In this document: positions 8,833-41,032 of the stretch, piece by piece
Layout of the letters: each line of letters opens with the position of its first letter
Numbering within the stretch: position 1 is the stretch's first letter
Source of the DNA: a bacterium
GTDB taxonomy: Bacteria > CLD3 > SB21
Assembly: GCA_013360215.1 (NCBI GenBank)
Contig: JABWCP010000029.1
Location: forward strand, 1-41,032
Direction of reading: 5' to 3'
Length of the DNA stretch: 41,032 nt
Made by a program: the position numbers and the translations under genes
Notes under the pieces: generated by a model
Seen by the model: only the letters and a program-made list of their open reading frames with translations
Database searches by the model: none
Told to the model about the DNA's origin: nothing

Positions 8833-8974
8833 GACCTTTCTTATTGCCTAACGACGTCATTTCTATTAATTTATCGTTTACAAACCATTCTCATGCAGTA
8901 TTAACACTTGGCATTTCTTTAGACTAAAAAAGAGTCTTTTCTTTTTTTTATTTCACTTGGCGAGGAGAGAATTT

Positions 8975-16843: not shown

Positions 16844-16902
16844 TCGCGATTTGCGTTATAAAAATTTAAAAATTATTTGATTGATTACCGAAAGACATCA
16901 TA

Positions 16903-23465: not shown

Positions 23466-24647
23466 ATGATGATTGAAACGGCAAATATAATTTCACTCAG
23501 GCGGCTTTTTGTTTTGAGTTGGTTTTTTGTAACCACGATCTGCGGGCAAAATTTGTATGAGAATCTGCAAAGCAGTTCAGGTGACACACCAGTGGATGTA
23601 TCACGTCGCACCAAAGGGCGTCGTTTTACGCCTATACCTTTGGTGAATTATACATCCGATGACGGTACGGGTTATGGTCTTCGTATGTGCGTGTATGACT
23701 ATGATAGTGTCACGGTGCCGTATCGTCGTGCTTTGAAAGCACAGTACTTTGTGACGACAGAGGGAAAATGGGCGCATGTGTTGTCTTTGGATTATCCGAA
23801 TTTTCTTAAAGGTCACCGTTTTGATTTCGAGTTAGCTTACGATAAGCTCGAGTTTGCCAATTATTACGGAGAACTTTCTAATCATATGGTGGATAGTTTG
23901 CGTTTGAGTAAATCACAACGAACTTTTCGTCAAGCTACACCGAGCGCATCCCTAACATGGATTTATGATCTGCATGGGCCATGGCGCCTTCGCGGCGGTG
24001 TGAGTATTCGCCATACTTCGGTCAAGCCCAATGCTGATTCAGGTAATATCCTTAAGGAACTGAAACCGGTGGGTTATAAAGGTGGTGTATTGTGGAAATT
24101 GGACGCTGCCATGCGATATGATACACGTGATAATTATATCAATTCCACGCGCGGGATATTAGAAGAGTTGCTTGTAGAATATAAAATAGGAGGAGAAGGG
24201 GATTATCAGGGGTGGCTCGCGAGTTATGAACATCGGCATTTCATTCCTATCACACCAAGTGTCGTGGCGGGATATCGTTTAGCGGCTGATCAAGTCTTTG
24301 GACAGATACCATTTTATGACGAATTGAAGCTGGGTGGTGAAGGTTCGGTGCGCGGTATGCCGTCGGCAAGGCGACGCGGGCAAGGTCGTTTTTTGGTTAA
24401 TACCGAACTGCGATGGCGTGGAATACATTTGTCGGATCGCCGTAATATGATGCTTGGGGTTATACTATTCACCGATGCGGGGCAAATTTATAAACGGAAA
24501 GACGGGCCATCCCTGATACCAAAAAACTGGCATGCCGGATACGGCGGAGGGCTTCGATTTTATTGGCATAGCACGATTATACGAACCGATTATGGCATTT
24601 CCGAAGGCGGAAGCGGTTTATACATTTTATTTTCACAGGTATTTTGA
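23466..24647 (+). CDS. Omp85/BamA-TamA-family outer-membrane beta-barrel lacking POTRA domains; alternative TTG start at 23436
   Basis: YDTRDN, LGGEGSVRG, FTDAGQ and GYGGGLRF motifs; C-terminal Phe. Confidence 0.85.
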   Translation: MMIETANIISLRRLFVLSWFFVTTICGQNLYENLQSSSGDTPVDVSRRTKGRRFTPIPLVNYTSDDGTGYGLRMCVYDYDSVTVPYRRALKAQYFVTTEGKWAHVLSLDYPNFLKGHRFDFELAYDKLEFANYYGELSNHMVDSLRLSKSQRTFRQATPSASLTWIYDLHGPWRLRGGVSIRHTSVKPNADSGNILKELKPVGYKGGVLWKLDAAMRYDTRDNYINSTRGILEELLVEYKIGGEGDYQGWLASYEHRHFIPITPSVVAGYRLAADQVFGQIPFYDELKLGGEGSVRGMPSARRRGQGRFLVNTELRWRGIHLSDRRNMMLGVILFTDAGQIYKRKDGPSLIPKNWHAGYGGGLRFYWHSTIIRTDYGISEGGSGLYILFSQVF

Positions 24648-24682
24648 TCTGATTCACAGATCACTAGAGCCCTTATTAAAAC

Positions 24683-24710
24683 AAAAAACGGCGAGTTTAG
24701 CTCGCCGTTT
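24683..24710 (-). terminator. Intrinsic terminator of icd (possibly bidirectional)
   Basis: AAACGGCGAG-tttag-CTCGCCGTTT with an A6 run that gives a U tail on the minus strand. Confidence 0.8.
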
Positions 24711-24730
24711 CATATTTACTTTTTTTGGTA

Positions 24731-25966
24731 TTACATATTTGCGATGATCGCATCGCCAAATTCGCTACACTTGATTTCTTTTGCACCATCCATCAGGCGG
24801 GCAAAATCATAGGTAACCGTTTTTTTTGCGATCGAGGTTTCAAGTCCTTTGATCAAAAGATCGGCAACTTCATTCCAACCCATATAGCGAAACATCATTT
24901 CGCCGGACAATATCACCGAACCGGGGTTGACTTTATCTAAATCGGCGTATTTAGGTGCTGTGCCGTGTGTAGCCTCAAATACGGCATGACCGGTGATATA
25001 ATTGATATTACCGCCCGGAGCTATACCGATGCCGCCGACTTGTGCAGCTAAGGCATCCGACAGATAATCACCGTTGAGGTTCATCGTGGCAATGACATCA
25101 AAATCTTCCGGCCGCGTCAGTACTTGCTGTAGTGTGATGTCGGCGATAGCGTCTTTGATGATAACACCACTAGGCAATTTGACCCACGGCCCGCCGTCAA
25201 TTTCCACACCTCCGAATTCGCGTTTGGCTAATTCATAACCCCAATCACGAAATGCACCTTCGGTGTATTTCATGATATTGCCTTTGTGCACAAGCGTCAC
25301 GCTCTTACGTTTTTGTGCGATGGCATATTGGATGGCGGAGCGAATCAAGCGTTCGGAACCTTCGCGTGATACCGGTTTGATACCGATGCCGCTCGTTTCG
25401 GGGAATCGTACTTTTTTAACGCCCATCTCATTTTGAAGCCAGGCGATTACTTTTTTAGCTTCCGGAGATCCTTCTTTCCATTCGATACCGGCGTAGATGT
25501 CTTCCGTATTTTCGCGGAAAATCACCATATCCACTTTTTCGGGGCGTTTGACAGGAGAGGGAACGCCGTTAAAATAACGCACAGGGCGTAAACAGACATA
25601 TAGATCGAGTGTTTGACGTAAGGCTACATTGAGACTGCGAATGCCTCCGCCCACCGGTGTCGTGAGGGGACCCTTGATCGAAACGAGATACTCTTTGCAA
25701 GCAGTGATGGTATCATCGGGAAGCCAAGTATTGTATTGATCAAATGATTTTTGTCCGGCATATACTTCAAACCAATGAATTTTTTTCTTACCGCCATAAG
25801 CTTTTTGTACAGCGGCATCAAACACACGTACCGATGCACGCCAAATGTCACGACCGGTACCATCACCTTCGATAAACGGTATGACCGGATTATCGGGTAC
25901 TTGGAGTACACCGTTTTGGATTGAAATTTTTTGACCTTCTTTGGGGGGAGTAATGTCTTTGTACAC
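24731..25966 (-). CDS. icd: NADP-dependent isocitrate dehydrogenase (E. coli type), GTG start
   Basis: [35 protein letters not shown] and [11 protein letters not shown] motifs; AAGGAA RBS before GTG at 25966 (ORF-track start 26059 is too long). Confidence 0.96.
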
Positions 25967-26012
25967 GGTTGGCTTCCTTATCGTGGTGAATGATGTGACG
26001 AAATGGTTTGAA

Positions 26013-26041
26013 AATATAGTTCCGATAAACCGCAAACTCAA
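26013..26041 (-). promoter_or_regulatory. Putative sigma70 promoter of icd
   Basis: TTGAGT-N17-TATATT on the minus strand. Confidence 0.55.
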
Positions 26042-26116
26042 GTCGGTCGCGAATATCATTCAAAAAAGCCAACTTCGATACAAAGAACAATGACAAACGT
26101 CAGGCTCGATAGAGAA

Positions 26117-26221
26117 TTACAATCCGTCTGAATAACGATCCCGGCGATCACCATTGCCGTAGAATATCGCCATCACCATAACAACCATAAAAAAAGCAAG
26201 TGCCATAATCATGTACTGCAT
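26117..26221 (-). CDS. Small 34-aa single-TM protein MQYMIMALAFFMVVMVMAIFYGNGDRRDRYSDGL, not in the ORF track
   Basis: ATG preceded by GAAAGGGA; hydrophobic 21-mer plus charged tail; TATAAT at 26269-26264 and CRP box upstream. Confidence 0.6.
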   Translation of the reverse strand: MQYMIMALAFFMVVMVMAIFYGNGDRRDRYSDGL

Positions 26222-26263
26222 AAAATCCCTTTCAAAAAACGATTACAACCATCGTTCAATAGG

Positions 26264-26307
26264 ATTATACATGAAAACCGTGTATTCGGTTTGTGATAGA
26301 GGTCACA
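26264..26307 (-). promoter_or_regulatory. CRP-type site plus -10 element (class II-like promoter)
   Basis: TGTGAtagaggTCACA at 26292-26307; perfect TATAAT on the minus strand at 26269-26264. Confidence 0.68.
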
Positions 26308-26354
26308 GGTTAATAGAGTGCGTCAAATAGTTGACGCCGATAGAGGTAAGTTAA

Positions 26355-27380
26355 TTAAAAATAGAGTTTATCTACGATAGATCGCGAATATTGCAGGGAA
26401 CAAACGCAACGCTGGCATATCGAATTTTGTGATATATCTAGGTTTTTCCGGAAGTGTATTGCATCGTCCCCATTTAGTATTTCCGGAAGTGGTTGATTGA
26501 AAAAATTTCCTAACGATGCATGAAAAAAACAAGGACGCACAGAGCCATCGGATTCTACCACAGCCGAAACCCACGGGGCGTTACAGGGTGGAGATTTGAA
26601 TGAACCTAAACCATGCACCGCTTCGTAATAATCTGCGATGCGCAGCAGTTTCTGAGGAGATTCTGAAATCCATCGCGTATGAAAAGCGTTATTAAATTCC
26701 TTTACTATATCTGACAAGCTCTGGCGCAGATCAGGAAGTTCATTGGGTGAGGGTATTATGGGATCTGTTTGTTCGGATTGCAAAGGCGAGGTGTGGTTAA
26801 AGGCTTGCGAATGCATATCCGCCGGTAAAAAACTCAACCGGCGTAACCCCATGTCTTGTGCGGCGATAATGAGTTCTTTTAAAAATCGGAAGTTTGATTT
26901 TTGGACTACACATCGCGCGGATATATTAAACTCCGGCTTAACGGTCAGTATGCTTTTAATGCCCACACGGATCTTTTCAAAGCCTCCGGGAATATTACGA
27001 ATGGTATCGTGAATTTGCGCCGGGCCGTCTAGAGATACGATCACCTCATCAATATGATCGGTAATGGATCGGGCAAACCGATCTAACAAAAGTCCGGTGG
27101 ATAATAATGTAAGTTTGATATCTGAAATTGATTTTAATGATGTGCAAAATTCAAACAAAGCGGGGTGAAGTAAGGCCTCACCGCCCGAAAAAACCACTTC
27201 ACGCACTCGCAACGATCGGATATCGTTTTCCAGTTTTTTAAAAATATCAGAATCCCACGATCGTAGATTTGAGTTGGATTTCCAGATATCACACATAAGG
27301 CAACGGCAATTGCAAGCGCTATGCGGCATCAGTACCAGTACAGGCAATGTTTTGATAGATTTTGATCTAAAAAAAGTCAT
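26355..27380 (-). CDS. Radical SAM enzyme with twitch/SPASM domain
   Basis: CNCRCLMC motif, SGGEAL, VSLDG; C-terminal CNAPW...DGSVRPC...CQRCVC; start at an ATGA overlap with the upstream gene, GGAG RBS. Confidence 0.9.
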   Translation of the reverse strand: MTFFRSKSIKTLPVLVLMPHSACNCRCLMCDIWKSNSNLRSWDSDIFKKLENDIRSLRVREVVFSGGEALLHPALFEFCTSLKSISDIKLTLLSTGLLLDRFARSITDHIDEVIVSLDGPAQIHDTIRNIPGGFEKIRVGIKSILTVKPEFNISARCVVQKSNFRFLKELIIAAQDMGLRRLSFLPADMHSQAFNHTSPLQSEQTDPIIPSPNELPDLRQSLSDIVKEFNNAFHTRWISESPQKLLRIADYYEAVHGLGSFKSPPCNAPWVSAVVESDGSVRPCFFHASLGNFFNQPLPEILNGDDAIHFRKNLDISQNSICQRCVCSLQYSRSIVDKLYF

Positions 27381-28552
27381 ATCCATGTCTCCGCTATTTT
27401 CCATACGGGATTTTGTTGAAGAAAAACGGAAGGAACGCCCGATGTTATGCGTTTCATCAACGAGGGCATATGTATGCACAGATAGTTTTGACGGATAAAT
27501 AACCTTTTTAATCGAAACGGCCAGCTGTGCGGCGGCTCACCGCGCAATAATCTTACACATCCGTTATGCAGCACCAGTCGGATATCATCGGGGTAAGTCG
27601 AAGTCAAATTCGTTTTGTAATCTTCTTGTTTGCGTGTTGCTATGAATAGATCAGCCGGTGCGCCTTTCGTAATGGCCATCGGCTTTTGTAAGCCGAATAT
27701 TCGTGATGGTCCGTTTGTTACCATGTGAAATATTTCATTCTCTGAAACCAGTCCTGTTTTAATGGCGTCACGAATTTCATCCAAAAGCGTCGGTGATCCG
27801 GTCAGAGTGGAATCGGTACCAAGGGCAACGGGAATGCGGTGTTTAAGCATATCTATCGGCGCAGTTCTTCCGAATAAGTATATATTGGAAGAAGGACACC
27901 AAACCAACGAAGCGCCTTTCTCCTGAAGACGATTTATTTGGTTTGCGGATACGGCAACACCATGAACCAGCACGGTTTGTTTCCGGAGATATCCTAAATT
28001 ATCCAATTCATCAATCTCTCTGGCCGCGCGCTCATTGATTCCTTCCGCAGCATGTATAATCAGCTTTTGTGTACCAAACCAACGCCTGCGGATTTTTTCC
28101 CCAAATACCAACGAATGCATCCATTGGTATCGGCTAAATACAGAGATCGGAAAACCAAAACGAAACCGCGCATGGTATGGATTGTGATGTACGACAGTAG
28201 TTACGCCTGAAATAATATTTTTAAATGCACCAAACAATAACCGATCGCGGAGCGGTAATGCCTCTATGTCAGAAACAGGCGCCGCATGGGGTTTATAAAT
28301 ATCATTTGCCCAAGCAACGTAGTCCTCATATGGCGGTTTCCCTAGCCTCGGATAAATATTCATTTCAAGATGATCGTGACTATTGATCAAACCCGGGTAA
28401 ACAAAATCGCCTTTACCGTCAATTACGATTTCACTCTTGTTTGGTTTTATGTCCTTATCAATTTCTACAATGTGACCATTCTTGATACGTAATGCGCCGC
28501 ATTGCAATTGTTCTTCATGTTCCCAGTTGACGTTTTGTATAAGCAGTTCCAT
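27377..28552 (-). CDS. Amidohydrolase-superfamily deaminase-like protein
   Basis: PGLINSHDH (HxH), HAAEG (HxxE), LVHG, CPSSN and LGTDS motifs; start at MELLIQ. Confidence 0.88.
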   Translation of the reverse strand: MELLIQNVNWEHEEQLQCGALRIKNGHIVEIDKDIKPNKSEIVIDGKGDFVYPGLINSHDHLEMNIYPRLGKPPYEDYVAWANDIYKPHAAPVSDIEALPLRDRLLFGAFKNIISGVTTVVHHNPYHARFRFGFPISVFSRYQWMHSLVFGEKIRRRWFGTQKLIIHAAEGINERAAREIDELDNLGYLRKQTVLVHGVAVSANQINRLQEKGASLVWCPSSNIYLFGRTAPIDMLKHRIPVALGTDSTLTGSPTLLDEIRDAIKTGLVSENEIFHMVTNGPSRIFGLQKPMAITKGAPADLFIATRKQEDYKTNLTSTYPDDIRLVLHNGCVRLLRGEPPHSWPFRLKRLFIRQNYLCIHMPSLMKRITSGVPSVFLQQNPVWKIAETWI

Positions 28553-28559
28553 GTACCAA

Positions 28560-29219
28560 TCATTTTTTTTGGCATTGCATTGCAAATACTACCGGTGTAT
28601 TGAGCCACGAAGCTTCGTTATGTTGTAAGCATGTGAAGCCTGTATCTTCAAGCATTCCACGGTATGTTTCAAGAGTATGAGTATGGTGCGTTACAGTGTA
28701 AGTCACACCGTGATGATCAAAAGAGCGTTTCATACCCTGATGCGCTGCATGCGGATGAAAATCCGTAATAATCAATATTCCGTCAGGACGTAAAGCGTCA
28801 TAAATGCTGTGAAGAATAAGGTTCGGATCGTCGGTGTGTGCCAGAACCAGAGCGCATACGGCCACATCGAATGGTTCATCAACAACAAATGACTGTTTTT
28901 CTGAGATCGTACGAAATTCGGCTTTGTCGGATGGAATCAACTTCCGAGCTTTAATGATCATGTTTTCTGAAATATCAAGACCTAACACGCGTGCGGCACC
29001 ATGATCTAATGCAAGCTTACATGCATGACCTGTTCCGCAACCCACATCAAGTAAAGCTTTGTCTTTCATTTCAGGTAAATATTCTGAAACCATATTATCG
29101 GAAAACGATTTTACGGGATTACGTTCGGTGTCGTATGATTCAGACCACAGATTGTATGCTTCTTTAGGATTGAGCTGAACAGGTGCTTTCCCGAAGAATT
29201 TGCGTACGCGCCGGAACAT
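28560..29219 (-). CDS. Class I SAM-dependent methyltransferase (BioC/UbiE-like)
   Basis: LLDVGCGTG, LDISENM, LRPDG. Confidence 0.9.
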   Translation of the reverse strand: MFRRVRKFFGKAPVQLNPKEAYNLWSESYDTERNPVKSFSDNMVSEYLPEMKDKALLDVGCGTGHACKLALDHGAARVLGLDISENMIIKARKLIPSDKAEFRTISEKQSFVVDEPFDVAVCALVLAHTDDPNLILHSIYDALRPDGILIITDFHPHAAHQGMKRSFDHHGVTYTVTHHTHTLETYRGMLEDTGFTCLQHNEASWLNTPVVFAMQCQKK

Positions 29220-30718
29220 CAGAACCCCTCCTTTTCAGGGCGGCGATATCGGAGCCAATATTTCTGAAGAAATTTCAATTCATATGGGTGCGCATACCGG
29301 TGAAACCGGTAACGCCACGAGGAAAACCATCGCATGGCAGTGCGCTGAAAAGCAGTTAGTTTGAGGTCGCTGATCGTCGGGTATTGTGCATTAAGAACAG
29401 TTTCAAAATCGTGAATATGACGGATCATCGCCGGAGTAAGCCACGGTGTCACATATTGACGGTGCAAATCAAAATTGAGCCACTCCGGTTTCATCCACTC
29501 ATCCAAATGTCGCGGGAACTGAAATCCGCGAGCTAAGGCCTGATTATATAAATCTGAACCTTCCGTAGGCACAGGTGTATATATATATATGATAATTTCA
29601 GTCGAAGGATTGATGGATTTTATTTCACGTATAAAGCGTATCTCCTGGTCAATCAGTTTCCAGACTTCATCTTCGGTGGCAGCCGGAAATCCAAGAACAA
29701 ACGAGTACTCCGGTATAATATCGTGTTCTCTTAATCGCGCGGCGAAACTCCGAAGTTTGTTACCGGACTGAGTTCCACCTTTGTCCATTTGGCGCAATAG
29801 CGTATCGTTTCCGCTTTCTGCTCCAAAAAATATCATGCGGCATCCCGACCGGCGCAGCGTCGCCAATGAAGCATCGCTATACTTATCCATCGTGTCAATT
29901 CGACCTTCTCCCCACCAAGCCATGCCGTCGTGCATAATACGTTCCGCAAATTCGACAACTCGTTTTTCAGAGACGAAGAAGTTATTATCGTGAAATGTGA
30001 TAGCGTTTCCGCCGTAGGTTTCTTTCAAAAATCGTATGTCACGGTAAATACGTTCAGCCGATTTGCCTTTCCAGCGTGTTTCGAAGATCGGTACAACGCC
30101 GCAGAATGAGCATGAAAATGGACAGCCTATACTTGAATGATAGGCAATAGTGCGCGTTCCCAAAAACGTTTTTCCCAAGTATCCATCCATCGGATAAAAG
30201 GAATGTAATGTGTCGTAGGGCAAATCCGGTAGCGTATCCTGATCAATAAGATCGGCTTTCGGTGTTTTATATATTGTGTCACCTGTGCGGTAAACGAGAT
30301 TGGAAATGGTTGCAACGGATGTTCGTGCCGTAAGCGCTTGCAGTAATTCGGGGAAAGCATGATCACCCGGTCCATTAATCACGTAATCAACATATCCCGA
30401 GCGAATCACAGTATGGCTTTGATTGGAAGCAAAATAACCACCCCAGATAATGGTCACGTGCGGATATTGTTCGCGGATCATTTTCGAAATAGGAATGGCT
30501 TGAGCAAGTTGCGGGCCGGGCATGACCGTGCAACAAAAGAATCCGAATGAAGGATCCCTGAATAAATCCATAATCTTTTCTAAAGGATCGGATTCCCTAT
30601 TGCCATCAACGATCACATAGTCATGTTGGCCATGTATCGAAGCGGCTATCTGTAAAATCGAGTTGGGTATGATTTTAGCGTGGATCGTAACTTTGGGGTT
30701 AAAAAAAATTATTTTCAT
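29219..30718 (-). CDS. Cobalamin-dependent radical SAM enzyme
   Basis: N-terminal B12-binding domain (IIWGGYFAS, VINGPGD); SIGCPFSCSFC; DNNFF; FGAESG. Confidence 0.92.
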   Translation of the reverse strand: MKIIFFNPKVTIHAKIIPNSILQIAASIHGQHDYVIVDGNRESDPLEKIMDLFRDPSFGFFCCTVMPGPQLAQAIPISKMIREQYPHVTIIWGGYFASNQSHTVIRSGYVDYVINGPGDHAFPELLQALTARTSVATISNLVYRTGDTIYKTPKADLIDQDTLPDLPYDTLHSFYPMDGYLGKTFLGTRTIAYHSSIGCPFSCSFCGVVPIFETRWKGKSAERIYRDIRFLKETYGGNAITFHDNNFFVSEKRVVEFAERIMHDGMAWWGEGRIDTMDKYSDASLATLRRSGCRMIFFGAESGNDTLLRQMDKGGTQSGNKLRSFAARLREHDIIPEYSFVLGFPAATEDEVWKLIDQEIRFIREIKSINPSTEIIIYIYTPVPTEGSDLYNQALARGFQFPRHLDEWMKPEWLNFDLHRQYVTPWLTPAMIRHIHDFETVLNAQYPTISDLKLTAFQRTAMRWFSSWRYRFHRYAHPYELKFLQKYWLRYRRPEKEGF

Positions 30719-31926
30719 ATGGCTTCATGTTCCGATAAAGGTGTGTTACGATCAACGCTTTGTTCCGGTGCTCCGGATTGGAGTACATAAGCGCCCAATA
30801 ATAACCATTGCGTCAATGCGGCAGATGCGATGGCGCCGGTAAGTCCCAGTGAAGGGATAAACAGAATATTACCTGTCAAGTTGACCAATGCACCGATCAG
30901 ACTCAAACGCAAAACTATAATGGATTTATGTTGTTTGAGTAAAGCGTGTACATATGGTAAATATACGTACATCGGGAGCACAAATAAAAAACCGACGGCC
31001 AATGCCGTGATCGGGACGCGGGTATCCTCGATAAACCATAAAATCCCAATCAAACAAACGACGCCGAGCGCAGTCAAAAGGCTGCCTGCAAAAAGTGATT
31101 GTAAGCCCATGCGCCGAATATGAGAGGCTTGTAACCGATATAGATTTTTTAACTGCGTTGAAATGGCAAACTCCGGCAGCGCTTGTAAAAAGCTAAGCAC
31201 ATTCATGACTATATGATAAACTCCTAATTCGGATGGCGGTAGCAGAACAGCAACACTGTAGGTGTCCATTTTAGAAACTAACAAACCGCTGATATTTTGC
31301 ATGGCAAGAGCCCATGCATGTTTGAGTTGATTCCATTGCGCGATAACTCTAAACCACAATCTGAATGTATTTCTCCATGCTATCAATAGAATGATAAGTC
31401 GGCAAAGAGCAGCCATGCAAGTGGCCCAGATCAAATGGATATGCTGCATCTCCGATGACCATAACGATAACCCTAAAAAAACGGCTGTACCTGCAAGATC
31501 ATTGAGGATGCCGAGTATGTATCGGTGATGAAAAATAATCGCCGGTTCAAATGCATGGATTCCAAATAAACATACGAACCAAAGCAGAAGAGGCGGTAAG
31601 GCGTCATTCGCTTGGACAACAGTACACATCAAAGCGATGGGTAGGATAAGTAAGGGTAAGCGCGTTTTGATATTCGTCAACCAGAGTTCCTGCCAGCGTT
31701 GCGGTTGATCCGAAAAAGCACGCAGTAAATATAAGCGGGAACCCCAATTGGCAAAAGTAACTCCAAAATGGATAACGATCAGATACCGCGCATAATTTCC
31801 CCACACCTCAAGCGAAGCCGTACGAATAATCACCACCGAGGAGATCAACCCCGCTGCGGGCGGAATCGCGTTGCGGAGAGCATTCCATAGCATCGGCATC
31901 CATCGTTGCGGCCATCGGTGTTTCAT
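30715..31926 (-). CDS. Wzx/MOP-family oligosaccharide flippase-like membrane protein
   Basis: About 12 TMs; WGNY, KMDTYSV...ELGVYH and NILFIPSLGLTGAIASA motifs; start uncertain. Confidence 0.78.
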   Translation of the reverse strand: MKHRWPQRWMPMLWNALRNAIPPAAGLISSVVIIRTASLEVWGNYARYLIVIHFGVTFANWGSRLYLLRAFSDQPQRWQELWLTNIKTRLPLLILPIALMCTVVQANDALPPLLLWFVCLFGIHAFEPAIIFHHRYILGILNDLAGTAVFLGLSLWSSEMQHIHLIWATCMAALCRLIILLIAWRNTFRLWFRVIAQWNQLKHAWALAMQNISGLLVSKMDTYSVAVLLPPSELGVYHIVMNVLSFLQALPEFAISTQLKNLYRLQASHIRRMGLQSLFAGSLLTALGVVCLIGILWFIEDTRVPITALAVGFLFVLPMYVYLPYVHALLKQHKSIIVLRLSLIGALVNLTGNILFIPSLGLTGAIASAALTQWLLLGAYVLQSGAPEQSVDRNTPLSEHEAI

Positions 31927-32026
31927 AGGGTATTCCAAAACGAATCGCAAATTAATCGTAAGCTTGTAGTTAGAAACTTTAAATCAAAAATCATGCTATG
32001 GTCGGGCTATTTGTCTATAACGTTAT

Positions 32027-33280
32027 TCATGTTTTATATCTAGGTTCAGAATTTGAATATAACGATTCTACGGAATACCACGCTTGATGTATTGTAAGAG
32101 CGAATAGGGCTGTCGTCGCATATAGACGCGGATAACCCAAAGCGGCCCACAGCCCATCAGGTTTTAAAGTTATGATCTGATGAATGGGGAAGTAGCTTAT
32201 CATAAGATAGAGACATCCCGCCGCGAGTTTAGCCCGCGCCGAAAACCAATTTTGAAAAAAAATAAAAGCTAAAGGAAAAACTAGCAGAACGAAATGGTAT
32301 GTTGCCGACGCAGGCAGTAAAGTAAAGATGGCTAACCAAATTACTACAAGCATTTTATCATCTCGATGTTCGCATCGAGATTTGTACAATTTAAATAACA
32401 CAACTACAGTTGTTACGAAGATGATTCCGTGTAGAAGGTATTTTATAACATGAGCTAATATAGGTAAGTCCAGAAGAGGATTGGCGTTATAATCGGGATG
32501 AAAAACGAAAAGATAATGCAAAACCCCCGTCCATGCCTGATAGGCGATGGCGTATGGAGTTCCGGAAGGGATTTCTGCTGCAAGGTGATTAAGAAATATG
32601 TTCCGAAAAAAAGATGCATTCAATGTATAACCGAAAACTAAAATTTGAATTATCATGCACACAATGATGCTTATGCCCATAGCGCTGACGGCCTTATAGC
32701 GTCGCTGCAGTAATAAGAATGGAATAAATATGGCCGTAAAATATTTTATCATAGCGGCTAGGCCGAGCAATAAACCGGTTAATATATTCCTATTATATTT
32801 GAGCAGCATATAACTACCCATACAAATCAAAAGAAGTATGATGTACAACTGTCCGGCTCGAAAATTATTGATCAGTCCAAAACCTGAAGCAAGTACCAAA
32901 ATTCCTGAGGTAAGAAACGATTGATGGAAAAGTCGCATTAGCCAGAAAACAATCATTCCAAGAGCAACGAGATTAACTATAATCCATATATTTTTAGCTG
33001 TTGCCGCTTCGAAATTAACGAGCGGAGTCATTACAAAAACTGTTAATGGCGGAAATTGAGAAAATCTTCCGGAATTAAAACCATGCTCGGTTAATTTTTT
33101 GTCAAACCACTGATCATCATAAAAATATTCGGCCGGATGCCCTTCGTTGTATAATTTAGCGGCCAAATAATAATTTGGAAAATCTCCATGAACGTCATTC
33201 CATGAAACCCATATGCCGCGCCAAAAAAACAAAGACGCCAGCACAACAAACGTAATCACTTGGCTACGCTTAAGATTCAC
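32027..33280 (-). CDS. GT87-like (DUF2029) GT-C membrane glycosyltransferase; GTG start assumed (alternative 33334)
   Basis: DFPNYY, QFPP, GQL and AAMIKYF motifs; multiple TMs. Confidence 0.8.
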   Translation of the reverse strand: MNLKRSQVITFVVLASLFFWRGIWVSWNDVHGDFPNYYLAAKLYNEGHPAEYFYDDQWFDKKLTEHGFNSGRFSQFPPLTVFVMTPLVNFEAATAKNIWIIVNLVALGMIVFWLMRLFHQSFLTSGILVLASGFGLINNFRAGQLYIILLLICMGSYMLLKYNRNILTGLLLGLAAMIKYFTAIFIPFLLLQRRYKAVSAMGISIIVCMIIQILVFGYTLNASFFRNIFLNHLAAEIPSGTPYAIAYQAWTGVLHYLFVFHPDYNANPLLDLPILAHVIKYLLHGIIFVTTVVVLFKLYKSRCEHRDDKMLVVIWLAIFTLLPASATYHFVLLVFPLAFIFFQNWFSARAKLAAGCLYLMISYFPIHQIITLKPDGLWAALGYPRLYATTALFALTIHQAWYSVESLYSNSEPRYKT

Positions 33281-34454
33281 TGCGCGGTATCTCCAATGAA
33301 GGATTTTTAGAAAAGTAGCTATTGAGTGTTTCATAAACCTGAGATACGGAGATATTTTGCATGCATGCGCATTGACGGTAGCAAACGATTTTTTTATCGT
33401 TATAAATCGAAATACACGGACTGCAATATTCGTTAGAGCTTAAAGCTGATTGATTTACTCCTACCGGTCCGTATAAAGCCGGGGTTTCCGGGCCAAAAAG
33501 ACCGACCGTCGGAGTGTTCGATAAAGTAGCTAAATGCATAGGCCCGGAGTCATTCGTAACCAGTGCAATGGCCTTGCTCAGCATATACGATGTACCGGCA
33601 ATAGTAAAGTGGCCGCACGCGCTAATCATTCGGGCCGAAGATACCATCGCACAAAGCGTTTCAACGCGTTGAATATCTTCTGTTCCGCCTATGACAATAA
33701 TGACACACTCTGGTTCGACAGCAAACCATCGTTTCGCTAATTCTGCAAAACGCTCCAGTGGCCATTGTCGTTCAGGTGCCATACTGCTGGTATTAGGGTT
33801 AAAAACGATAAACCGGTTAATACCTCGTGTTTTTAGGAAAGCATCCACTTTGGATTTCTCGCCATCCTCAGCAACACACGGAATAAGTTCGTCGGTATGT
33901 ATCGTAAATTTTACCGCTTTTAGCGAATCCATGAAAATTTTCGAAATATGGCGTGTTTCGGAATAAGGTATAGTTATATCAAAAATATTTTTGGCACTGC
34001 CGGACGGATTGAAACCTACGAGAAAACTACGGTATGACCAAAAACTTAGCATTGCGGTAAACCGCGATGCAAACTCGAAATCAAACACAATATCCGGCGG
34101 TTGTGCGCGCAAGAACGACATAATTTGGTACAAAGAACGGATCGCCTTGGGCAACGAATTTAAATCGAAATACATAAGTTGATTGATCCATGGACCGGGA
34201 GCGTACAAGCTTTGGTTTTGTTTAAGTGTGATTAACGTGATGTGTGCTTCGGGGCAATTCAGTCGCATATTACGGATAGCGCTACTACCAAGAATCACCG
34301 AACCCATACCCCACATTTTAATAATGACAATACGCCGTATCTCATTTGGCAATGGGCATGTTTTTTTTCGGAAGCGACTAATAACCGACAATATTCGACA
34401 CAACGGTTTCCCGAACTTACGATCAATCCATCGAGCGGTACGTATCGTGATCAT
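33270..34454 (-). CDS. GT9 (heptosyltransferase-like) glycosyltransferase
   Basis: KMWGMGSVIL, RQWPLERF and VTNDSGPMHLA...VGLFGPE motifs. Confidence 0.9.
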   Translation of the reverse strand: MITIRTARWIDRKFGKPLCRILSVISRFRKKTCPLPNEIRRIVIIKMWGMGSVILGSSAIRNMRLNCPEAHITLITLKQNQSLYAPGPWINQLMYFDLNSLPKAIRSLYQIMSFLRAQPPDIVFDFEFASRFTAMLSFWSYRSFLVGFNPSGSAKNIFDITIPYSETRHISKIFMDSLKAVKFTIHTDELIPCVAEDGEKSKVDAFLKTRGINRFIVFNPNTSSMAPERQWPLERFAELAKRWFAVEPECVIIVIGGTEDIQRVETLCAMVSSARMISACGHFTIAGTSYMLSKAIALVTNDSGPMHLATLSNTPTVGLFGPETPALYGPVGVNQSALSSNEYCSPCISIYNDKKIVCYRQCACMQNISVSQVYETLNSYFSKNPSLEIPRSES

Positions 34455-34491
34455 TCTTTTACAATACTTCGAATTAAGAAATCAGAGCCTG

Positions 34492-35313
34492 TCATGATAC
34501 GTTTCTCGTCTTTTTTTGAAATGTCCATATCACGTGATCGGCCCAATGATTAAGTGGCCACGATGTTGAATACCCTTCCTCAGCTCTTTTCAGATAAGCG
34601 TATATGTCCGGATGAGAAACTGCAAAATCCATACGATGGGGAGGCGGCACTAGGGCGCCTAAACCTTCGGACTGACAAAGTTGATATCCGTCACCCAAAG
34701 CTTTTTGCACGTCGGAAACATTGAAATAGTAACATTGGAAATAAATACCCTCGACATGTGCACGTGCGCCACCGCGATGCAGGCGTCGAAAGGCATACCT
34801 CAGATGGCCTTTGAGTGCAGCGGCTATTTCCCATGGTGAGATTTTGGGCATGATCACCCATGTCAGGCGGCCGCCGGGTTTGAGCAAATCGTCTATATGT
34901 TGAGTTACAAGTCTGAGATTGGGTGCGCAATTGAGTCCTCCGAAATTGGAAAAAATATAATCGAAGGGGCCGTTGGAGATACGGTTTAATTCCGTATAAG
35001 ATAATTGTTCTATCGTTATACTGTTTTCCAAATTTGCAGCGGTAATTTTTTTTCTCATCTGACGGATCATACCTTCGGAAAGATCCGTAGCATGCACGGT
35101 ACATCCGTATTGTGCAAAGCGCATCGCATCAATACCGGTTCCCGCGTTGATTTCCAGTACCCGTTCTCCCGGTTTTAAAAATTCAAAAACGTGATTGTAT
35201 ACACGTTGTCGCATCCACAATAATATCGGGTTCGATTGGTCATACGCGTCGTACCCCTCAGACTGCCGCGAGAACGCTGTGTTGATATCGTCTAATGAAT
35301 CGGTTGGTATCAT
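34492..35313 (-). CDS. Class I SAM-dependent methyltransferase
   Basis: VLEINAGTG, TDLSEGM, FSNFGGLNC, LKPGG. Confidence 0.9.
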   Translation of the reverse strand: MIPTDSLDDINTAFSRQSEGYDAYDQSNPILLWMRQRVYNHVFEFLKPGERVLEINAGTGIDAMRFAQYGCTVHATDLSEGMIRQMRKKITAANLENSITIEQLSYTELNRISNGPFDYIFSNFGGLNCAPNLRLVTQHIDDLLKPGGRLTWVIMPKISPWEIAAALKGHLRYAFRRLHRGGARAHVEGIYFQCYYFNVSDVQKALGDGYQLCQSEGLGALVPPPHRMDFAVSHPDIYAYLKRAEEGYSTSWPLNHWADHVIWTFQKKTRNVS

Positions 35314-35317
35314 ATAA

Positions 35318-36757
35318 TCATTTCGGATCGGTCGGGTTCAATGGCCTCATTCTTGTCAGTTGAACGTACGGGCCGTATATCAAATACTTGATTAAATAAT
35401 ACACGGCATGGATACATCGGTGCCATGGACCACGTTTTAAAAAAAGTCTAAGCCGATATTCTGCATGCACAAAACGATGCAGTGCTTTGTAAAAAGATTT
35501 GGAATACGTTCCCTCAAACATCATATCCAAATCATCGGAATCAGACCAATTATGCTTTTCTTTCAATTCATTGCGTACGCGTTCATAAAAAGGAGTACCC
35601 GGCAGAGGATACGATACAGATATGCCGAGTTCATCGGGAAGATTTTGGCGTATCATCGCACGTGTCGCATTGATATCATTCCACGATTCACCGGAATAAC
35701 CGAACTGGATAAAGTATGCCGTTTCGATGCCCGAGCGACGAAGATTTTGTGTGGCCTCGTCAATCTGTGTACGTTGTACGCCCTTATCCATGGCGTTCAA
35801 TATTTTTTGCGAACCGGATTCGGCTCCCAACCAGACGGTACGACAACCCGATTCACGCAGTGCGCTGATCGTATTGCCGCGCAACAGTAAGTCAGCGCGA
35901 CTGAGGCATTTGTACGGCAGATGGAGGCGGCGTTGTTGTAAAGCGACAGCAAAGCTATCGAGCCATCCCGGCTTCAATCCGAAAATGTCATCCGTAATCC
36001 ATATATGATCGGCACCATACCGGTGATGCAGGCGATAAAATTCGTCGGCAGTTGACTCGGCTGATCGTGCGTGATACACTTGCCCATATATCGGTTTGGC
36101 GCACCAGTTGCAGTGATACGGACATCCGCGGGACGTCGTGACGTTCATGGAAAAATATCCGTGATGCCGCTTCCATTCGTTTTGATACGAAGCGATATCT
36201 ACTAAGGTAAAATCCGGTGCAGGCAATTGGTCAATATTCAAAGTTGCATTACGTCGGCCCGGATGATCGGATGGTGCTATATCGCGCCGGAGGAGACCGG
36301 ATACTCGGCGATCACCGCGCCGGACATCATCGTGATGTACGATATCGGATATCACGGATTCACCTTCACCGATGATGACCCCGTCGGATCCGTTATTCAA
36401 ATATAGCGGGGCATGGTCGGTCGCGTCCGAACTATACACGAATACGGGGATTTGGTGTTCGGTCGAACGGCGGATCATATAGAAAGCCGCTTGACGCATA
36501 TTGGTAAGGCACATCTTGGTGAGATAATTGAACTCATCATCATAGATAAAATGCAAATCAGGCCGCCATGATGCTATGGTTTGATCAAACGATTTCATGT
36601 CGCGTGAGAACATGCCGTCAATGATACGCACATCATGCCCTTCATTACGTAACATCGCAGCGGCTATGAGTGTTCCCAGCGGTGCATACGGCATGTGACG
36701 TTTCTCTTCTTTAGGGTCGAGATAACGTTGGTAGGATTGAGTAAAGAGTATTTTCAT
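35318..36757 (-). CDS. Cobalamin-dependent radical SAM enzyme
   Basis: YAPLGTL, IGEGE, TSRGCPYHCNWC, DDIFG, LGAESGSQ and PLPGT motifs. Confidence 0.92.
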   Translation of the reverse strand: MKILFTQSYQRYLDPKEEKRHMPYAPLGTLIAAAMLRNEGHDVRIIDGMFSRDMKSFDQTIASWRPDLHFIYDDEFNYLTKMCLTNMRQAAFYMIRRSTEHQIPVFVYSSDATDHAPLYLNNGSDGVIIGEGESVISDIVHHDDVRRGDRRVSGLLRRDIAPSDHPGRRNATLNIDQLPAPDFTLVDIASYQNEWKRHHGYFSMNVTTSRGCPYHCNWCAKPIYGQVYHARSAESTADEFYRLHHRYGADHIWITDDIFGLKPGWLDSFAVALQQRRLHLPYKCLSRADLLLRGNTISALRESGCRTVWLGAESGSQKILNAMDKGVQRTQIDEATQNLRRSGIETAYFIQFGYSGESWNDINATRAMIRQNLPDELGISVSYPLPGTPFYERVRNELKEKHNWSDSDDLDMMFEGTYSKSFYKALHRFVHAEYRLRLFLKRGPWHRCIHAVYYLIKYLIYGPYVQLTRMRPLNPTDPK

Positions 36758-37665
36758 CCGGCTAAATTTTGTTTACGCTGAAGGCGCTGCTCAATATGAG
36801 CCTCAATAAGTGCGCCGTAATCAATATTCCATCGGGACGATGCCTGATCGGTCGTTGAAAAAAGCTTGTCACGCTGGGATTGTTGAAGCTCGGGATGCCG
36901 CCATTTCCATATCTTATCCCAGATACGCCGTAGGAATGTATCCATACCGGGAATCACCAGAGGAAAACAAACCCACTCCAAAAAACGTTGTACGTAAGAA
37001 GGGTTGGCCTCCGATTTTGACGGATGCGAAGGAAATTTCCAATTGGGTAAAAAGTCATGTATCCATCGGTTGTTTTCCTGAAAGCGATCCAATGCTTTAG
37101 CATTCCATAGCATTTTGACGGTGGCGGTTTCGTATGCCGTATAATAGCTTTTAAATGGTATCTCCAAACCGTCTTCTGCCAGTATGTAATTCACGCAAAA
37201 GTTATCATTATCGTTAAGCAGGAAAATCTTTTTTATTACGGTAAATAGCGTGCGTACAAGCCATACACGTCCGTGAGGAACAATAATCAGATAATCGATA
37301 TCATCGCTGGCATCCGCTACGTTTTTTGATAAACTGCCGGTTAATAACACTCCGCGTACAAACGGAATGAATGCCATCCAACGTGCAATACGTTCTGCTT
37401 TAGCCTTGAGCGGCGCGGCGCGTTTCTCGTCTTCCAAACGTTTGTTGACGATATCTGTTGTGTGATCAGTAAAACAATAGTATCCGTCGCGGCAAATGAT
37501 TTCTCCCTCCGCACACCACTGATTAAGTGCTGCTTCCAGTTGTTTGGTGTCACGGCAGGGGACGGCAAGCATACAGCGAATTTCTTCGGAAGTCAGTGGA
37601 TACTTGAAATAGTCGCAGTAGGCGATAACGCGTACTATGGCGTCAGAAACAGATTGGCTCATCAT
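36754..37665 (-). CDS. Nucleotidyltransferase-fold protein with N-terminal wHTH-like region
   Basis: TGSLSK...DDIDY (Pol-beta GS/DxD motif); N-terminal YFKYPLTSEEI; ATGA overlap with the next gene. Confidence 0.78.
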   Translation of the reverse strand: MMSQSVSDAIVRVIAYCDYFKYPLTSEEIRCMLAVPCRDTKQLEAALNQWCAEGEIICRDGYYCFTDHTTDIVNKRLEDEKRAAPLKAKAERIARWMAFIPFVRGVLLTGSLSKNVADASDDIDYLIIVPHGRVWLVRTLFTVIKKIFLLNDNDNFCVNYILAEDGLEIPFKSYYTAYETATVKMLWNAKALDRFQENNRWIHDFLPNWKFPSHPSKSEANPSYVQRFLEWVCFPLVIPGMDTFLRRIWDKIWKWRHPELQQSQRDKLFSTTDQASSRWNIDYGALIEAHIEQRLQRKQNLAG

Positions 37666-37864: not shown

Positions 37865-40330
37865 ATGTCCACATCTTCTTCAAACGATCAGATCGCGGCG
37901 AAATACGACTTCACTAAAATCGAAGCCAAATGGCAAGCTTATTGGAATCAGCATAAAACTTTCCGTGTGACGGAAGACCCCAAGTTTCCCAAAGAAAAAC
38001 GATTCTACGTTTTAGATATGTTTCCTTATCCGTCAGGTGCGGGATTGCATGTAGGTCATCCGGAGGGTTATACAGCGACCGATATCCTTGCGCGATACAA
38101 ACGCATGAAAGGGTTCAATGTACTCCATCCGATGGGTTGGGATGCATTTGGATTGCCGGCCGAGCAGTATGCGGTAAAAACCGGTGTGCACCCGGCCATC
38201 ACAACCAAACAAAATATAGACACCTTTCGCCGTCAGCTCAAAATATTCGGTTTCTCATACGATTGGGATCGTGAAGTCAATACGACCGATCCGCATTATG
38301 TCAAGTGGACGCAGTGGATATTTCTTCAATTGTTTAAGAAGAACCTCGCTTATATCGCTGAAGTACCGGTCAACTGGTGTCCGGAACTCGGTACCGTACT
38401 GGCCAATGAAGAAGTACCGGAACAAATCGAAAAAGGTTTTACTGTCGTACGAAAACCCATGCGCCAATGGATGCTCCGAATTACGGCGTATGCGGATCGT
38501 TTGCTGGAGGATCTCAATTTAGTGGATTGGCCTGAAAGCATCAAAGAAATGCAACGCAATTGGATCGGTCGCAGCGAAGGTGCCGAGATTCATTTCCGCA
38601 TCAAAGATCACGACGGGGATATCAAAGTGTTTACGACACGACCGGATACGATTTTTGGTGCGACCTATATGGTGCTCGCACCGGAACATCCGCTGGTTGA
38701 AAAAATAACAAGTGCAGAACAGCGTAATGCGGTGGAAGCTTATCGCAAACAAGCCGCTTTGAAAAGCGATATGGAGCGTACGGAGTTAGCCAAAGATAAA
38801 ACCGGGGTGTGGACCGGTGCGTATGCGATCAATCCTGCCAACGGTAATCCGATACCGGTATGGATTGCAGACTACGTCCTGATCAACTATGGTACCGGTG
38901 CGATTATGGCTGTACCGGCGCATGACACACGCGACTGGGAATTTGCAAAAAAATTTGATCTTCCCATCGTCGAAGTCGTTAAAGCGGCGAAAAACGTACA
39001 AGAAGAAGTGTACGATAATAATACGGATAGCGTCTGTGTGAATTCTTCCAATGCGGAAGTATCGATCAACGGAATGAATTATAAAACCGCATTTGATACG
39101 ATCGTAGCTTGGATCGAAAATAAAGGTATCGGTAAGCGCACCATTAACTATAAGCTCCGCGACTGGCTTTTCTCGCGTCAGAGATATTGGGGTGAACCTT
39201 TTCCCATAGTTCACCTTGAGGATGGCCGTATCATGCCGTTGGATGAATCCGTTTTACCGTTGAATCTTCCGGAAGTACAGTCATATAAGCCGGCCGGTAC
39301 CGGCGAGTCACCGCTTGCGACGATGACCGATTGGGTGAACATAACCATGGATGGAAAATCCGCGCGTCGCGAAACGAACACCATGCCGCAGTGGGCCGGT
39401 TCTTGCTGGTATTATCTTCGTTATTGTGATCCCCATAACGATCAAGCATTTGTGGATGCGGAAAAAGAAAAATATTGGTTGCCTGTTGATTTGTATGTTG
39501 GTGGCGGTGAACACGCCGTGCTGCATCTTTTATATGCGCGCTTTTGGCATAAAGTGCTTTTCGATTTGAAATTGGTTTCTACGCCGGAACCTTTTATGAA
39601 ACTTGTCAATCAAGGTATCATTTTAGGTGAAGATTCACAAAAAATGTCCAAATCCCGAGGCAATGTCGTCAATCCCGATGATGTTATCGCGCAATACGGC
39701 GCCGACGCCATGCGGCTTTACGAAATGTTTATGGGGCCGTTGACACAGACCAAACCCTGGAGTACACGCGGTGTCGAGGGTGTGTACCGTTTTCTTCAGC
39801 GTACATGGCGTCTTTTTGTGGATGAGCGCGACCAACTGTCGTCTAAAGTGCAGGATGTCGAACCGACGCCGGATCAGTTACGCGTTTTGCATAAAACGAT
39901 CAAAAAAGTACAAGATGATATCGAGGCGCTTAGTTTTAATACGGCAATTGCTCAAATGATGATATTTGTAAATGAACTTACGCCGTCGGACGTGCGGCCG
40001 CGAAAAGTTATAGAACCGTTTTTGCTTTTGTTGGCGCCTTTTGCTCCGCATATTGCGGAGGAATTATGGTCGCGTCTTGGGCATACAATGTCACTCACCT
40101 ACGAGCCATTTCCCGTTTTTGATCCCGCATGGACGGTGGAAGATACGGCTACGGTTGTTCTTCAGGTCAATGGAAAATTAAGGGATAAACTTGAAGTGAA
40201 AAAAGGTTTGGATAAACAAACCTTAGAGACCATGGCTAAAGAAAAACTTGGACATTGGGTTGCCGGAAAAGAAATTGTTAAAATAGTTGTGGTACCGGAT
40301 AAATTAGTCAATGTGGTGGTGAAGGGATGA
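37865..40330 (+). CDS. leuS: Leucine--tRNA ligase
   Basis: MFPYPSG...HVGH, editing domain [24 protein letters not shown]. Confidence 0.98.
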
Positions 40331-40905: not shown

Positions 40906-40985
40906 TGGATGCGTGAAATAGAGATATTGATAGTGTGTCGTCCTAGAAAAAGTACACAGTTTTTTAGTTAGTGATTTATTCCGTT

Positions 40986-41018
40986 AAATCGGTGTAGGCA
41001 TGCCTACACCGATTTTTT
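40986..41018 (+). terminator. Perfect 30-bp palindrome, probable intrinsic terminator
   Basis: AAATCGGTGTAGGCA|TGCCTACACCGATTT followed by TTT. Confidence 0.75.
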
Positions 41019-41032
41019 GTCCATAAAATTCT

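Follow-up and report, generated by a model that had tools for sequence, protein, structure and literature searches.

Described relatives and the window locus

In PMC12583986 and PMC13459092, class B radical S-adenosylmethionine (SAM) enzymes tailor the sugar of a membrane lipid together with a glycosyltransferase (GT) and sometimes a deacetylase, as in HpnI/HpnK/HpnJ, which form the cyclitol ether of bacteriohopanetetrol, and in the calditol synthase Cds. PMC12583986 also describes nucleoside hopanoids (adenosylhopane, methylated adenosylhopanes, inosylhopane and N-methyl inosylhopane), in which lipid-bound adenine is methylated, or is deaminated and then methylated. Here we describe a set of ten genes at positions 26355-37665 of a 41,032-nucleotide bacterial contig (GenBank JABWCP010000029.1, assembly GCA_013360215.1), the whole of which we call the window. 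By analogy, these genes would work much as HpnI/K/J, calditol synthase and the aminoglycoside-tailoring enzymes do, but they fall outside each of those systems. Sequence comparison suggests that they belong to a real, uncharacterised radical SAM system for envelope tailoring.

We hold, with moderate confidence, that the ten genes represent a cassette that builds a radical-tailored, methylated unit for a lipid-linked glycan, with two alternative amino finishes and with interchangeable GT, flippase and GT-C genes for delivery. To the described systems the analysis adds a reciprocal swap of one methyltransferase (MT4) for a methyltransferase-deaminase pair (MT2 and AH), several gene fusions, a two-module structure, a GT9-GT87 subtype, a degenerate cobalamin site in RS1 and evidence that lipopolysaccharide (LPS) is not a required acceptor. 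The cassette would constitute a common orphan pathway with two or three class B-like radical SAM families, an unusual nucleotidyltransferase and a new deaminase subfamily. We found no description of the cluster in open-access PMC or bioRxiv, although subscription papers and supplementary tables could still mention it.

The ten open reading frames (ORFs) are bracketed by icd (24731-26059) and the divergent leuS (37865-40330). In the order in which they are read, they are:

36754-37665, minus strand: NT, a winged-helix and Pol-beta-type nucleotidyltransferase with a helical C-terminal part (Atlas, fold and motif evidence)
35318-36757, minus strand: RS1, a class B-like radical SAM protein with CxxxCxWC and a divergent cobalamin domain (Pfam, motifs)
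34492-35313, minus strand: MT1, a class I SAM methyltransferase with an SNFGGLNC motif, the constant partner of RS1 (Pfam, co-occurrence)
33270-34454, minus strand: GT9, a glycosyltransferase of the subtype paired with window-type GT87 (Pfam E 7e-25)
32027-33334, minus strand: GT87, a GT-C membrane glycosyltransferase, its start possibly GTG 33280 (Pfam E 2e-23)
30715-31950, minus strand: a divergent Wzx/MOP-type flippase, accessory, starting at TTG 31950 or ATG 31926 (weak Pfam match, transmembrane stretches)
29219-30718, minus strand: RS2, a class B (B12-binding) radical SAM protein with CxxxCxFC (Pfam, motifs)
28560-29219, minus strand: MT2, a class I SAM methyltransferase, partner of AH and fused to it in other bacteria (Pfam, fusions)
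27377-28552, minus strand: AH, a deaminase-type amidohydrolase with an H-x-H/H-x-x-E/H/D metal site (Amidohydro_1, motifs)
26355-27380, minus strand: TW, a radical SAM protein ending in a twitch-type cysteine domain, a common though not constant member (Radical_SAM and SPASM/twitch)

The initial annotation had proposed ten co-oriented genes in this order, joined mostly by short overlaps or gaps of 4-7 nt, and reading of the DNA bears this out. ATGA overlaps lie at 36754-36757, 30715-30718 and 27377-27380, a TGATG stop/start overlap at 29219, and gaps of 4 and 7 nt at 35314-35317 and 28553-28559, the AH start being ATG 28552; six of the nine junctions are tight in this sense. The three looser ones all surround GT9, GT87 and the flippase: a 37-nt gap between MT1 and GT9, an overlap of 11 or 65 nt between GT9 and GT87, depending on start choice, and a gap of 76-100 nt between GT87 and the flippase. 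The locus is no assembly artefact, since run X8 has one contig that extends over 24500-37446 and differs by 117 substitutions and a single 9-nt insertion. That insertion, near window position 30755, is in frame and close to the C-terminus of the flippase in the X8 strain. GC content in the gene set (0.39-0.48) stays within the range of the window (0.37-0.48), so there is no compositional island, and recent arrival as a foreign island was rejected for want of a GC shift. The distribution is patchy within the family of the source genome (G000, 100% complete), where RS2 occurs in 3 of 14 other genomes and NT in 7 of 14. A promoter and terminator scan was uninformative (20 and 9 sites against 29.8 and 12.8 in shuffles), and a 228-nt contig over MT1 in an RNA run was rejected as evidence of expression.

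Pfam backs all the gene labels except those of the flippase, whose match is below its cut-off, and the nucleotidyltransferase, which has none; the B12-binding/Radical_SAM pair (twice), the two methyltransferases, GT9, GT87, Amidohydro_1 and the twitch domain all stand as proposed. None of the ten proteins reaches a curated NCBIfam cut-off, and no curated equivalog or solved orthologue was found for any of them, in agreement with the earlier view that the set is no characterised pathway. The best NCBIfam scores of RS1 and RS2 are 98 and 113 bits, against cut-offs of 251-775 for the HpnJ, HpnR, BchE, PhpK, BzaD, AprD4 and TIGR04295 equivalogs.

As with HpnI/K/J and Cds, related cassette loci hold GT4 genes together with PIG-L or NodB-type deacetylases. 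Unlike HpnJ, RS1 and RS2 score 91 and 100 bits against its cut-off of 577.6, and unlike HpnI/K/J the cassette adds a nucleotidyltransferase, methyltransferases, a deaminase, a GT-C protein and a flippase. Squalene-hopene cyclase was found in 0 of 35 genomes at E 1e-20 and not in G000 at E 0.001, the control scoring only under the cut-off, and a hopanoid substrate was rejected because of this absence. The finishes of the nucleoside hopanoids match the product pair predicted for MT4 versus AH plus MT2, as an analogy only; the cassette genomes differ in having no hopanoid genes, and HpnH was not matched.

In aminoglycoside tailoring (GenK/GenD1 with GenN; AprD4, AprI), class B-like radical SAM enzymes and SAM methyltransferases likewise act on sugars, as PMC13459092 describes. 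AprD4 ranks first or second among the solved matches of both RS2 (E 2.5e-14) and RS1 (E 1.6e-25), but the scores are 56-58 bits against a cut-off of 500, and no aminocyclitol or aminotransferase genes were seen. The amino-sugar N-methyltransferases GenN and AprI are described with the motif NSPT in PMC9338882, in contrast to NPPY in MT4. Unlike the Fom1 cytidylyltransferase/Fom3 system, NT is a Pol-beta/winged-helix protein, and no phosphonate genes were seen in the scanned loci; the OxsB match reaches E 2.3e-19 only. TW is nearest among solved proteins to SkfB and BlsE. The cytosylglucuronate decarboxylase BlsE is its second-best match (E 5e-19) and has the same domain layout, but the alignment covers the radical SAM core alone, and TW scores 55 bits against 400 for BlsE and 54 against 170 for N_Twi_rSAM.

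A shuffled cassette of two modules

Loci were collected by scanning genomes (2 loci), from metagenomes (the best 80 of 503 matches) and from relatives of G000, giving a first set of 87 loci with an RS2 homologue after removal of 6 duplicate or extension pieces; the metagenome loci are biased to close relatives and include some near-duplicates. A further 400 genomes were drawn evenly from the phylum of G252 (probably Bacteroidota, as we infer); 28 of 401 genomes were positive and 27 loci were retrieved, here called the GTDB loci. The phylum samples around G292 and G332 comprised 3 genomes each. Among 8,000 scored candidates, 7,419 matched RS2 at E 1e-50 or better, and the best 120 homologues are 61-100% identical, the named ones coming from Cytophagales, Cyclobacteriaceae, Ignavibacteriaceae and other Bacteroidota.

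Where at least 6 kb was available on both sides of RS2 (23 loci), RS1 and MT1 were each present in 22, NT in 21 and TW in 18, with GT4a in 17 and an ABC exporter in 13 (plus 2 of a second type); GT9-like genes were present in 5, GT87 in 3 and the window-type flippase in 1. The corresponding counts for the 27 GTDB loci were 24 for RS1 and for MT1, 23 for NT and 10 for TW, with GT87 in 11, window-type GT9 in 8 and the window-type flippase in none. This wide co-occurrence of RS1, MT1 and NT with RS2, across many orders, supports the suggestion that the gene set is conserved. Gene order and strand vary between loci, which argues for functional linkage beyond shared ancestry. Judged by gene content, the window's ten genes are one version of a widespread, shuffled cassette, and the cassette is made up of two modules: NT, RS1 and MT1 (module A), and RS2 with a swappable adjacent partner (module B). 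The ten-gene operon first proposed consists of real genes but is not a fixed unit, as GT9/GT87/flippase and AH with MT2 are replaced elsewhere. One locus (L126) has nearly the window's set (NT, RS1, MT1, GT9, GT87, RS2, TW, MT2 and AH), and another (L056) has GT87, GT9, flippase, RS2, MT2 and AH. Searches of plasmids (RS2, AH, RS1), phage records (NT) and viral contigs (RS2 alignment, MT2-AH fusion) gave no match.

Module A occurs without RS2 in G002, G006, G007, G010 and G250, next to GT4, GT9, ABC exporter or Wzx genes; the arrangement in G250 is GT4-NT-RS1-MT1-Wzx. At L155 and L156 (genomes G002 and G006) NT is fused behind a GT4. NT accompanies Wzx and an epimerase with no radical SAM gene at L158, where it forms NT-MT1, and at L163. 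A distant version, L113 (G332), has RS1, RS2, RS3, MT1 and TW but, in place of NT, a nearby NTP_transf_5 nucleotidyltransferase (PF14907), possibly a non-orthologous replacement. Apparent MT1-GT9 fusions in L122 and L128 were discarded, their extra N-termini being out-of-frame read-back over MT1.

NT itself gave no Pfam match, PF01909 being seen in one homologue, and nothing meaningful in a PDB sequence search. Its predicted fold (predicted local distance difference test score 91) comprises an N-terminal winged helix and a Pol-beta nucleotidyltransferase domain, which best matches ANT(4') (VIA Z 9.1, root-mean-square deviation 2.7, 109 aligned); the best Foldseek hits, at E 0.005, are MNT antitoxins. 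ANT(4') and the MNT antitoxins are enzymes that adenylylate hydroxyl groups. G109, D121 and D123 are invariant in 34 aligned rows, so the G-S and D-x-D signatures are present; C-x-N occupies the usual position of the third acid, and E178 is invariant. With the Atlas evidence, fold and motifs bear out the nucleotidyltransferase label that had been assigned to this protein. The winged helix (VIA Z 7-8.6) raises the alternative that the core modifies nucleic acid bases or protein side chains, with this domain binding DNA or RNA or regulating, a notion helped by the resemblance to AMPylating MNT antitoxins and by the habit of NPPY enzymes and deaminases of acting on bases. Z values below 8 may, however, reflect merely a common arrangement, the cassette keeps constant company with flippases, GT-C proteins and ligases, NT is fused to a GT4, and the viral and phage collections searched held no match; we give this alternative almost no credence.

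Class B radical SAM enzymes carry the cobalamin motifs GG, a downstream S/T and GE, as defined in PMC9204698; the GG motif lies on strand 4 and accommodates the tail of the cobalamin. RS2 has the class B domain layout, with PF02310 at 37.6 bits (cut-off 32.1) followed by PF04055, and C199, C203 and C206 are invariant. It has WGG in 113 of 115 sequences and T/S-x-M in 90 of 115 by pattern (24 unmatched, 1 other), with G-D where G-E is expected, and overall retains the cobalamin motifs. RS1 scores 28.2 bits for the B12-binding domain, below the same cut-off, and among 69 orthologues the GG position reads SSD in 59 and GSD in 8 (2 unmatched), with the GE motif kept in 67. Since SSD or GSD replaces GG in 67 of 69, RS1 may bind cobalamin in another way or fail to bind it; of the two B12-type radical SAM enzymes proposed for the window, RS2 fits that label by its motifs and RS1 is uncertain as a normal B12 enzyme. 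The RS1 paralogue RS3 keeps GGP in 18 of 22.

This third family, with its intact GG, is inserted in a number of loci (22 ORFs counted; L039, L059, L062, L079, L093, L095, L107, L108, L122, L128 and others). A flavin-reductase-like protein, possibly an electron donor for the radical enzymes, often lies beside the cassette (L001:691-1668; 26 loci of FR12/FR14). Cassette genes are scattered singly over contigs in G292 (L112, L141, L153, L161) and G019 (L027, L143, L154, L160). In one clade (L122, L125-L131/L142, L135-L139) the cassette is found immediately upstream of genes for cytidine deaminase, thymidine kinase, the NupC nucleoside transporter and purine nucleoside phosphorylase, mostly in the same orientation; this adjacency may be inherited synteny, yet it fits a nucleoside link. 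Sulfotransferase or arylsulfotransferase genes (L062, L134, L138, L145) and FkbM methyltransferases (L035, L043, L121, L134) appear as tailoring accessories.

Two proposed finishes for one amino group

The partner of RS2 takes two forms. Across 114 loci, the NPPY N-methyltransferase MT4 was present in 55 and the deaminase/methyltransferase pair in 44, with both in none and neither in 15, mostly truncated loci. In the first 87, MT4 was found in 35, MT2 in 37 and AH in 33 (all 33 with MT2), with both states in 0 and neither in 15; the 27 GTDB loci divide into 20 with MT4 and 7 with MT2 and AH, with none holding both or neither. Five of 47 loci with at least 2.3 kb on both sides had neither. Genome-wide, 35 genomes with RS2 comprised 12 with AH only, 21 with MT4 only, one with both (G292) and one, 84% complete, with neither (G332); the thresholds (AH E <1e-90, MT4 E <1e-21) were set after viewing the score gaps, and the gap for MT4 is narrow at its low end. 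On a second RS2 tree of 100 rows, composed of the rows of the first plus the GTDB rows minus 15 stateless rows, there are 7 state changes, 5 of them forced by strongly supported branches. An independent-pairs sign test (5/5, p 0.0625) was not used as evidence; it is circular because the 15 loci with neither state were left out.

All 38 AH sequences retain HxH, HxxEG, H and GTDS. The top solved relatives of AH, TM0936 and methylthioadenosine (MTA)/S-adenosylhomocysteine (SAH) deaminase (E 2e-15 to 1e-10), are too distant for a substrate to be named, and it stands below all deaminase cut-offs (70 bits against 522 for 5'-deoxyadenosine deaminase). The accessible part of PMC13197243 gives no usable deaminase substrate motif. 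The residue three after HxH is hydrophobic (F in 34, M in 3, L in 1 of 38), as in TM0936 and 4dyk; a Gln at this position marks guanine-type deaminases. A single-sequence fold of AH was unusable (score 33). MT4 has NPPY or NPPF in 49 of 50 members, and its nearest solved relatives are MJ0882, RsmC, N6AMT1, METTL5 and HemK. Deaminase-type amidohydrolases remove, by hydrolysis, amino groups borne by planar carbon, and the targets of NPPY methyltransferases are planar nitrogens in bases or amides. The 150 best AH homologues include 31 proteins longer than 520 residues, and 27 of these are MT2-AH fusions, some from Terriglobales, with Atlas clusters mostly from Acidobacteriota; AH-TW and AH-MT3 fusions also exist. 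Judged by these fusions, MT2 and AH are one unit.

Amino removal and amino methylation could not usefully share a pathway, which would explain why MT4 and AH plus MT2 exclude each other, and the swap points to one amino group finished in two ways. We lean towards the view that one nitrogen is the target of both MT4 and AH. Neither an aminotransferase nor an amidotransferase was found among 30 cluster representatives and 61 further proteins, a scan that took in 44 of 66 unassigned in-cassette ORFs, with several others covered in separate scans; the nitrogen thus probably enters as part of a preformed building block, for example ATP, SAM or a nucleoside diphosphate sugar. That it is part of a nucleobase, the simplest case being adenine supplied by ATP, SAM or ADP-heptose, is possible but tentative, and a carboxamide finished as N-methylamide versus methyl ester seems unlikely. 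Speculatively, and rather doubtfully, many kinds of bacteria might decorate an envelope glycan or glycolipid with a radical-rearranged unit that bears a nucleobase. In such a scheme a lipid-linked sugar would receive an adenosine-derived group through the nucleotidyltransferase or a radical SAM enzyme, its base being finished as N-methyl-adenine (by MT4) or methyl-hypoxanthine (by AH and then MT2), and the product would be a non-hopanoid counterpart of nucleoside hopanoids. If the unit does carry a nucleobase, it would represent a kind of surface modification not described before and might account for some lipid biomarkers of unexplained origin. The swap also offers a direct experimental handle, as the products of the natural versions would lie about 1 Da apart.

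Several observations weigh against so simple an exchange. G292 has MT4 together with a more distant AH-like gene, on separate contigs; on the first RS2 tree (88 rows) there are 3 state changes, of which strong branches force only 1, and the second tree was a quick one (LG+G4, with the Shimodaira-Hasegawa-like approximate likelihood-ratio test only). Pairings of the partners are not absolute, given that G007 combines MT2 and AH but lacks an RS2 orthologue, and that G137 has AH but no MT2. The conserved His-Ser of AH is not placed by alignment on the substrate-binding loop of known deaminases.

The same enzymes could be read otherwise, with AH (and MT2) merely clearing by-products of SAM enzymes, 5'-deoxyadenosine or SAH, and the alternation with MT4 a lineage accident. 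The closest solved relatives of AH are indeed SAH/MTA-type deaminases, and the state is strongly clustered on the tree, one large clade contributing 33 of 45 rows with AH and MT2. Against this, the 55 MT4 loci have as many SAM enzymes and no AH (genome-wide, 21 of 22), AH is fused to MT2, TW or MT3, and sister rows differ with high support (L127/L129, L056/L117, L130 versus L126 and L131), which makes the clean-up role very unlikely.

Three further observations concern these families. In 5 loci a second twitch family, TW24, stands in for TW or accompanies it. Seven of the 27 GTDB loci, each with MT4, have a membrane-anchored calcineurin-like phosphoesterase within the cassette (L122:4574-5851, L124, L128, L130, L137, L139, L140). 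In three cassette-free genomes, a more distant AH subfamily (about 190-210 bits; L147:9292-10542, L148:9250-10713, L150:9474-10964) lies directly before a pair of cyclic-nucleotide-binding/CRP-like genes, and its members are candidate cyclic-nucleotide or purine deaminases.

Transfer genes, membrane context and acceptor

Window-type GT9 adjoins window-type GT87 in 9 of 9 loci. GT87 matches PF09594 at 84 bits (cut-off 25) and has 8 transmembrane segments, with D51 in the first loop nearly invariant and the DF..Y, PP and GQ motifs kept, as expected of its family. The flippase gene matches Polysacc_synt_3 at E 0.003 (17.4 bits against 23) and has at least 7 predicted transmembrane stretches; its homologue in L107 scores 25.9 bits for Polysacc_synt against 28.2, and two other homologues gave no match. 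In most relatives this block is replaced by GT4s, an ABC exporter and other GT-C proteins, and by these comparisons GT9, GT87 and the flippase form a recurring, replaceable transfer module. GT4, GT2, GT9, GT87, PMT_2, Wzx, ABC exporter, Wzy_C, Bac_transf and deacetylase genes neighbour the cassette, and these flippase and ligase neighbours, with the GT4-NT fusions, point to a lipid-linked envelope glycan.

Scores for basic amphipathic helices are suggestive of membrane-surface enzymes for NT, MT1, RS2, MT4 and the GT4s. The family medians of these proteins lie at the 89th-96th percentile, with candidate helices at conserved positions, and 92% of NT, 91% of MT1 and 93% of RS2 members exceed the 75th percentile of the genome; the RS1 median is at the 83rd percentile.

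A lipid-linked pathway at the membrane also has evidence set against it. The amphipathic medians of AH, MT2 and TW (50th-67th percentile) are near the median, and the background was 1,113 soluble ORFs of one genome, G000, the family members being related sequences. No GT or flippase was recognised inside the core loci L117, L127, L132 and, in part, L133, so the carrier may be supplied from outside the cassette, or there may be none, and the ten-gene set holds no GT2-type polyprenyl-phosphate loader for GT87.

Such minimal loci without GTs would also suit a cassette whose end product, of nucleoside-like or glycosylated natural-product type, leaves the cell as a free small molecule by the ABC or Wzx exporter, with the glycan genes in part mere neighbours. 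The nearest solved relatives of RS1 and RS2 (AprD4, OxsB, CysS, TokK) come from natural-product pathways, BlsE is near TW and ANT(4'), AadA and LinB are near NT, and one clade has the cassette directly upstream of cdd-tdk-nupC-pnp. All of these natural-product matches are distant and below curated cut-offs, however, and the GT-C and O-antigen-ligase-like genes, which need lipid-linked donors, recur in several unrelated families. With NT fused to GT4, and found beside Wzx and an epimerase where there is no radical SAM gene, we consider a free product distinctly unlikely.

An LPS-specific version, which overlaps the reading we favour, would have the operon modify lipid A or the LPS core, with GT9 as heptosyltransferase and GT87 as periplasmic lipid A/core transferase. 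GT9 is the LPS heptosyltransferase family, G000 has LpxC and HldE (for ADP-heptose), and the GT9-GT87 pair recurs in 9 loci. But the window GT9 scores 77 bits against 134.6 for heptosyltransferase II, with 67 against 185.3 and 64 against 170.2 for the others of WaaC, WaaF and WaaQ, and is additional to two other GT9s of G000, one of them beside hldE. G250 (100% complete) carries module A, and since no LpxC match was found in this genome, lipid A is not a requirement of module A. LPS specificity is quite improbable, though it may hold for the window version without being the general function. The proposal that the product is attached to LPS or another envelope lipid survives in its envelope-glycan context, though LPS is not established as the acceptor, which may be LPS, another glycolipid, protein or a wall glycan.

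Under the lipid-linked glycan reading, an unusual, multiply methylated, radical-tailored sugar-type unit would be assembled on the inner surface of the cytoplasmic membrane before passing to an envelope glycoconjugate. NT, RS1 and MT1 would nucleotidylate and tailor a glycan-linked intermediate, and RS2 with its partner would finish a planar amino group, in a nucleobase or an amide. In the window version AH would hydrolyse this group and MT2 methylate the product, where in other versions MT4, with its NPPY motif, would N-methylate it directly; TW would supply an optional radical step (oxidation, epimerisation or decarboxylation). GT9 would load or extend the lipid-linked intermediate, the Wzx-like protein flip it and GT87 transfer it outside the cytoplasm. 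The membrane-surface location, the lipid carrier and the order of steps are what we infer from these comparisons. In favour of this reading, G000 also has a B12-using methylmalonyl-CoA mutase and, for ADP-heptose, HldE. Orthologues of MT3, MT4, GT4a, GT4b and the flavin-reductase-like protein were not found elsewhere in G000; the window version needs no cassette genes from elsewhere in its genome and thus suits heterologous expression.

Elsewhere in the window, two ORFs (6869-8050, 393 aa; 40327-40905, 192 aa) gave no Pfam match. Positions 16361-19305 encode [2Fe-2S] and molybdopterin subunits of xanthine/aldehyde-oxidoreductase type, with no FAD subunit recognised beside them. A 1491-aa secreted-type protein (8957-13432) combines BNR/Vps10-like repeats and Ig-like domains with a FlgD/Por-type sorting domain at its C-terminus; a FecR-like gene comes before it and a CsgG-like gene after it. 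Thirty bases at 40933-40963 are common to several X8 contigs and one high-depth contig covers 40934-41032; positions 40933-41032, the last of the contig, probably form one end of a multi-copy element.

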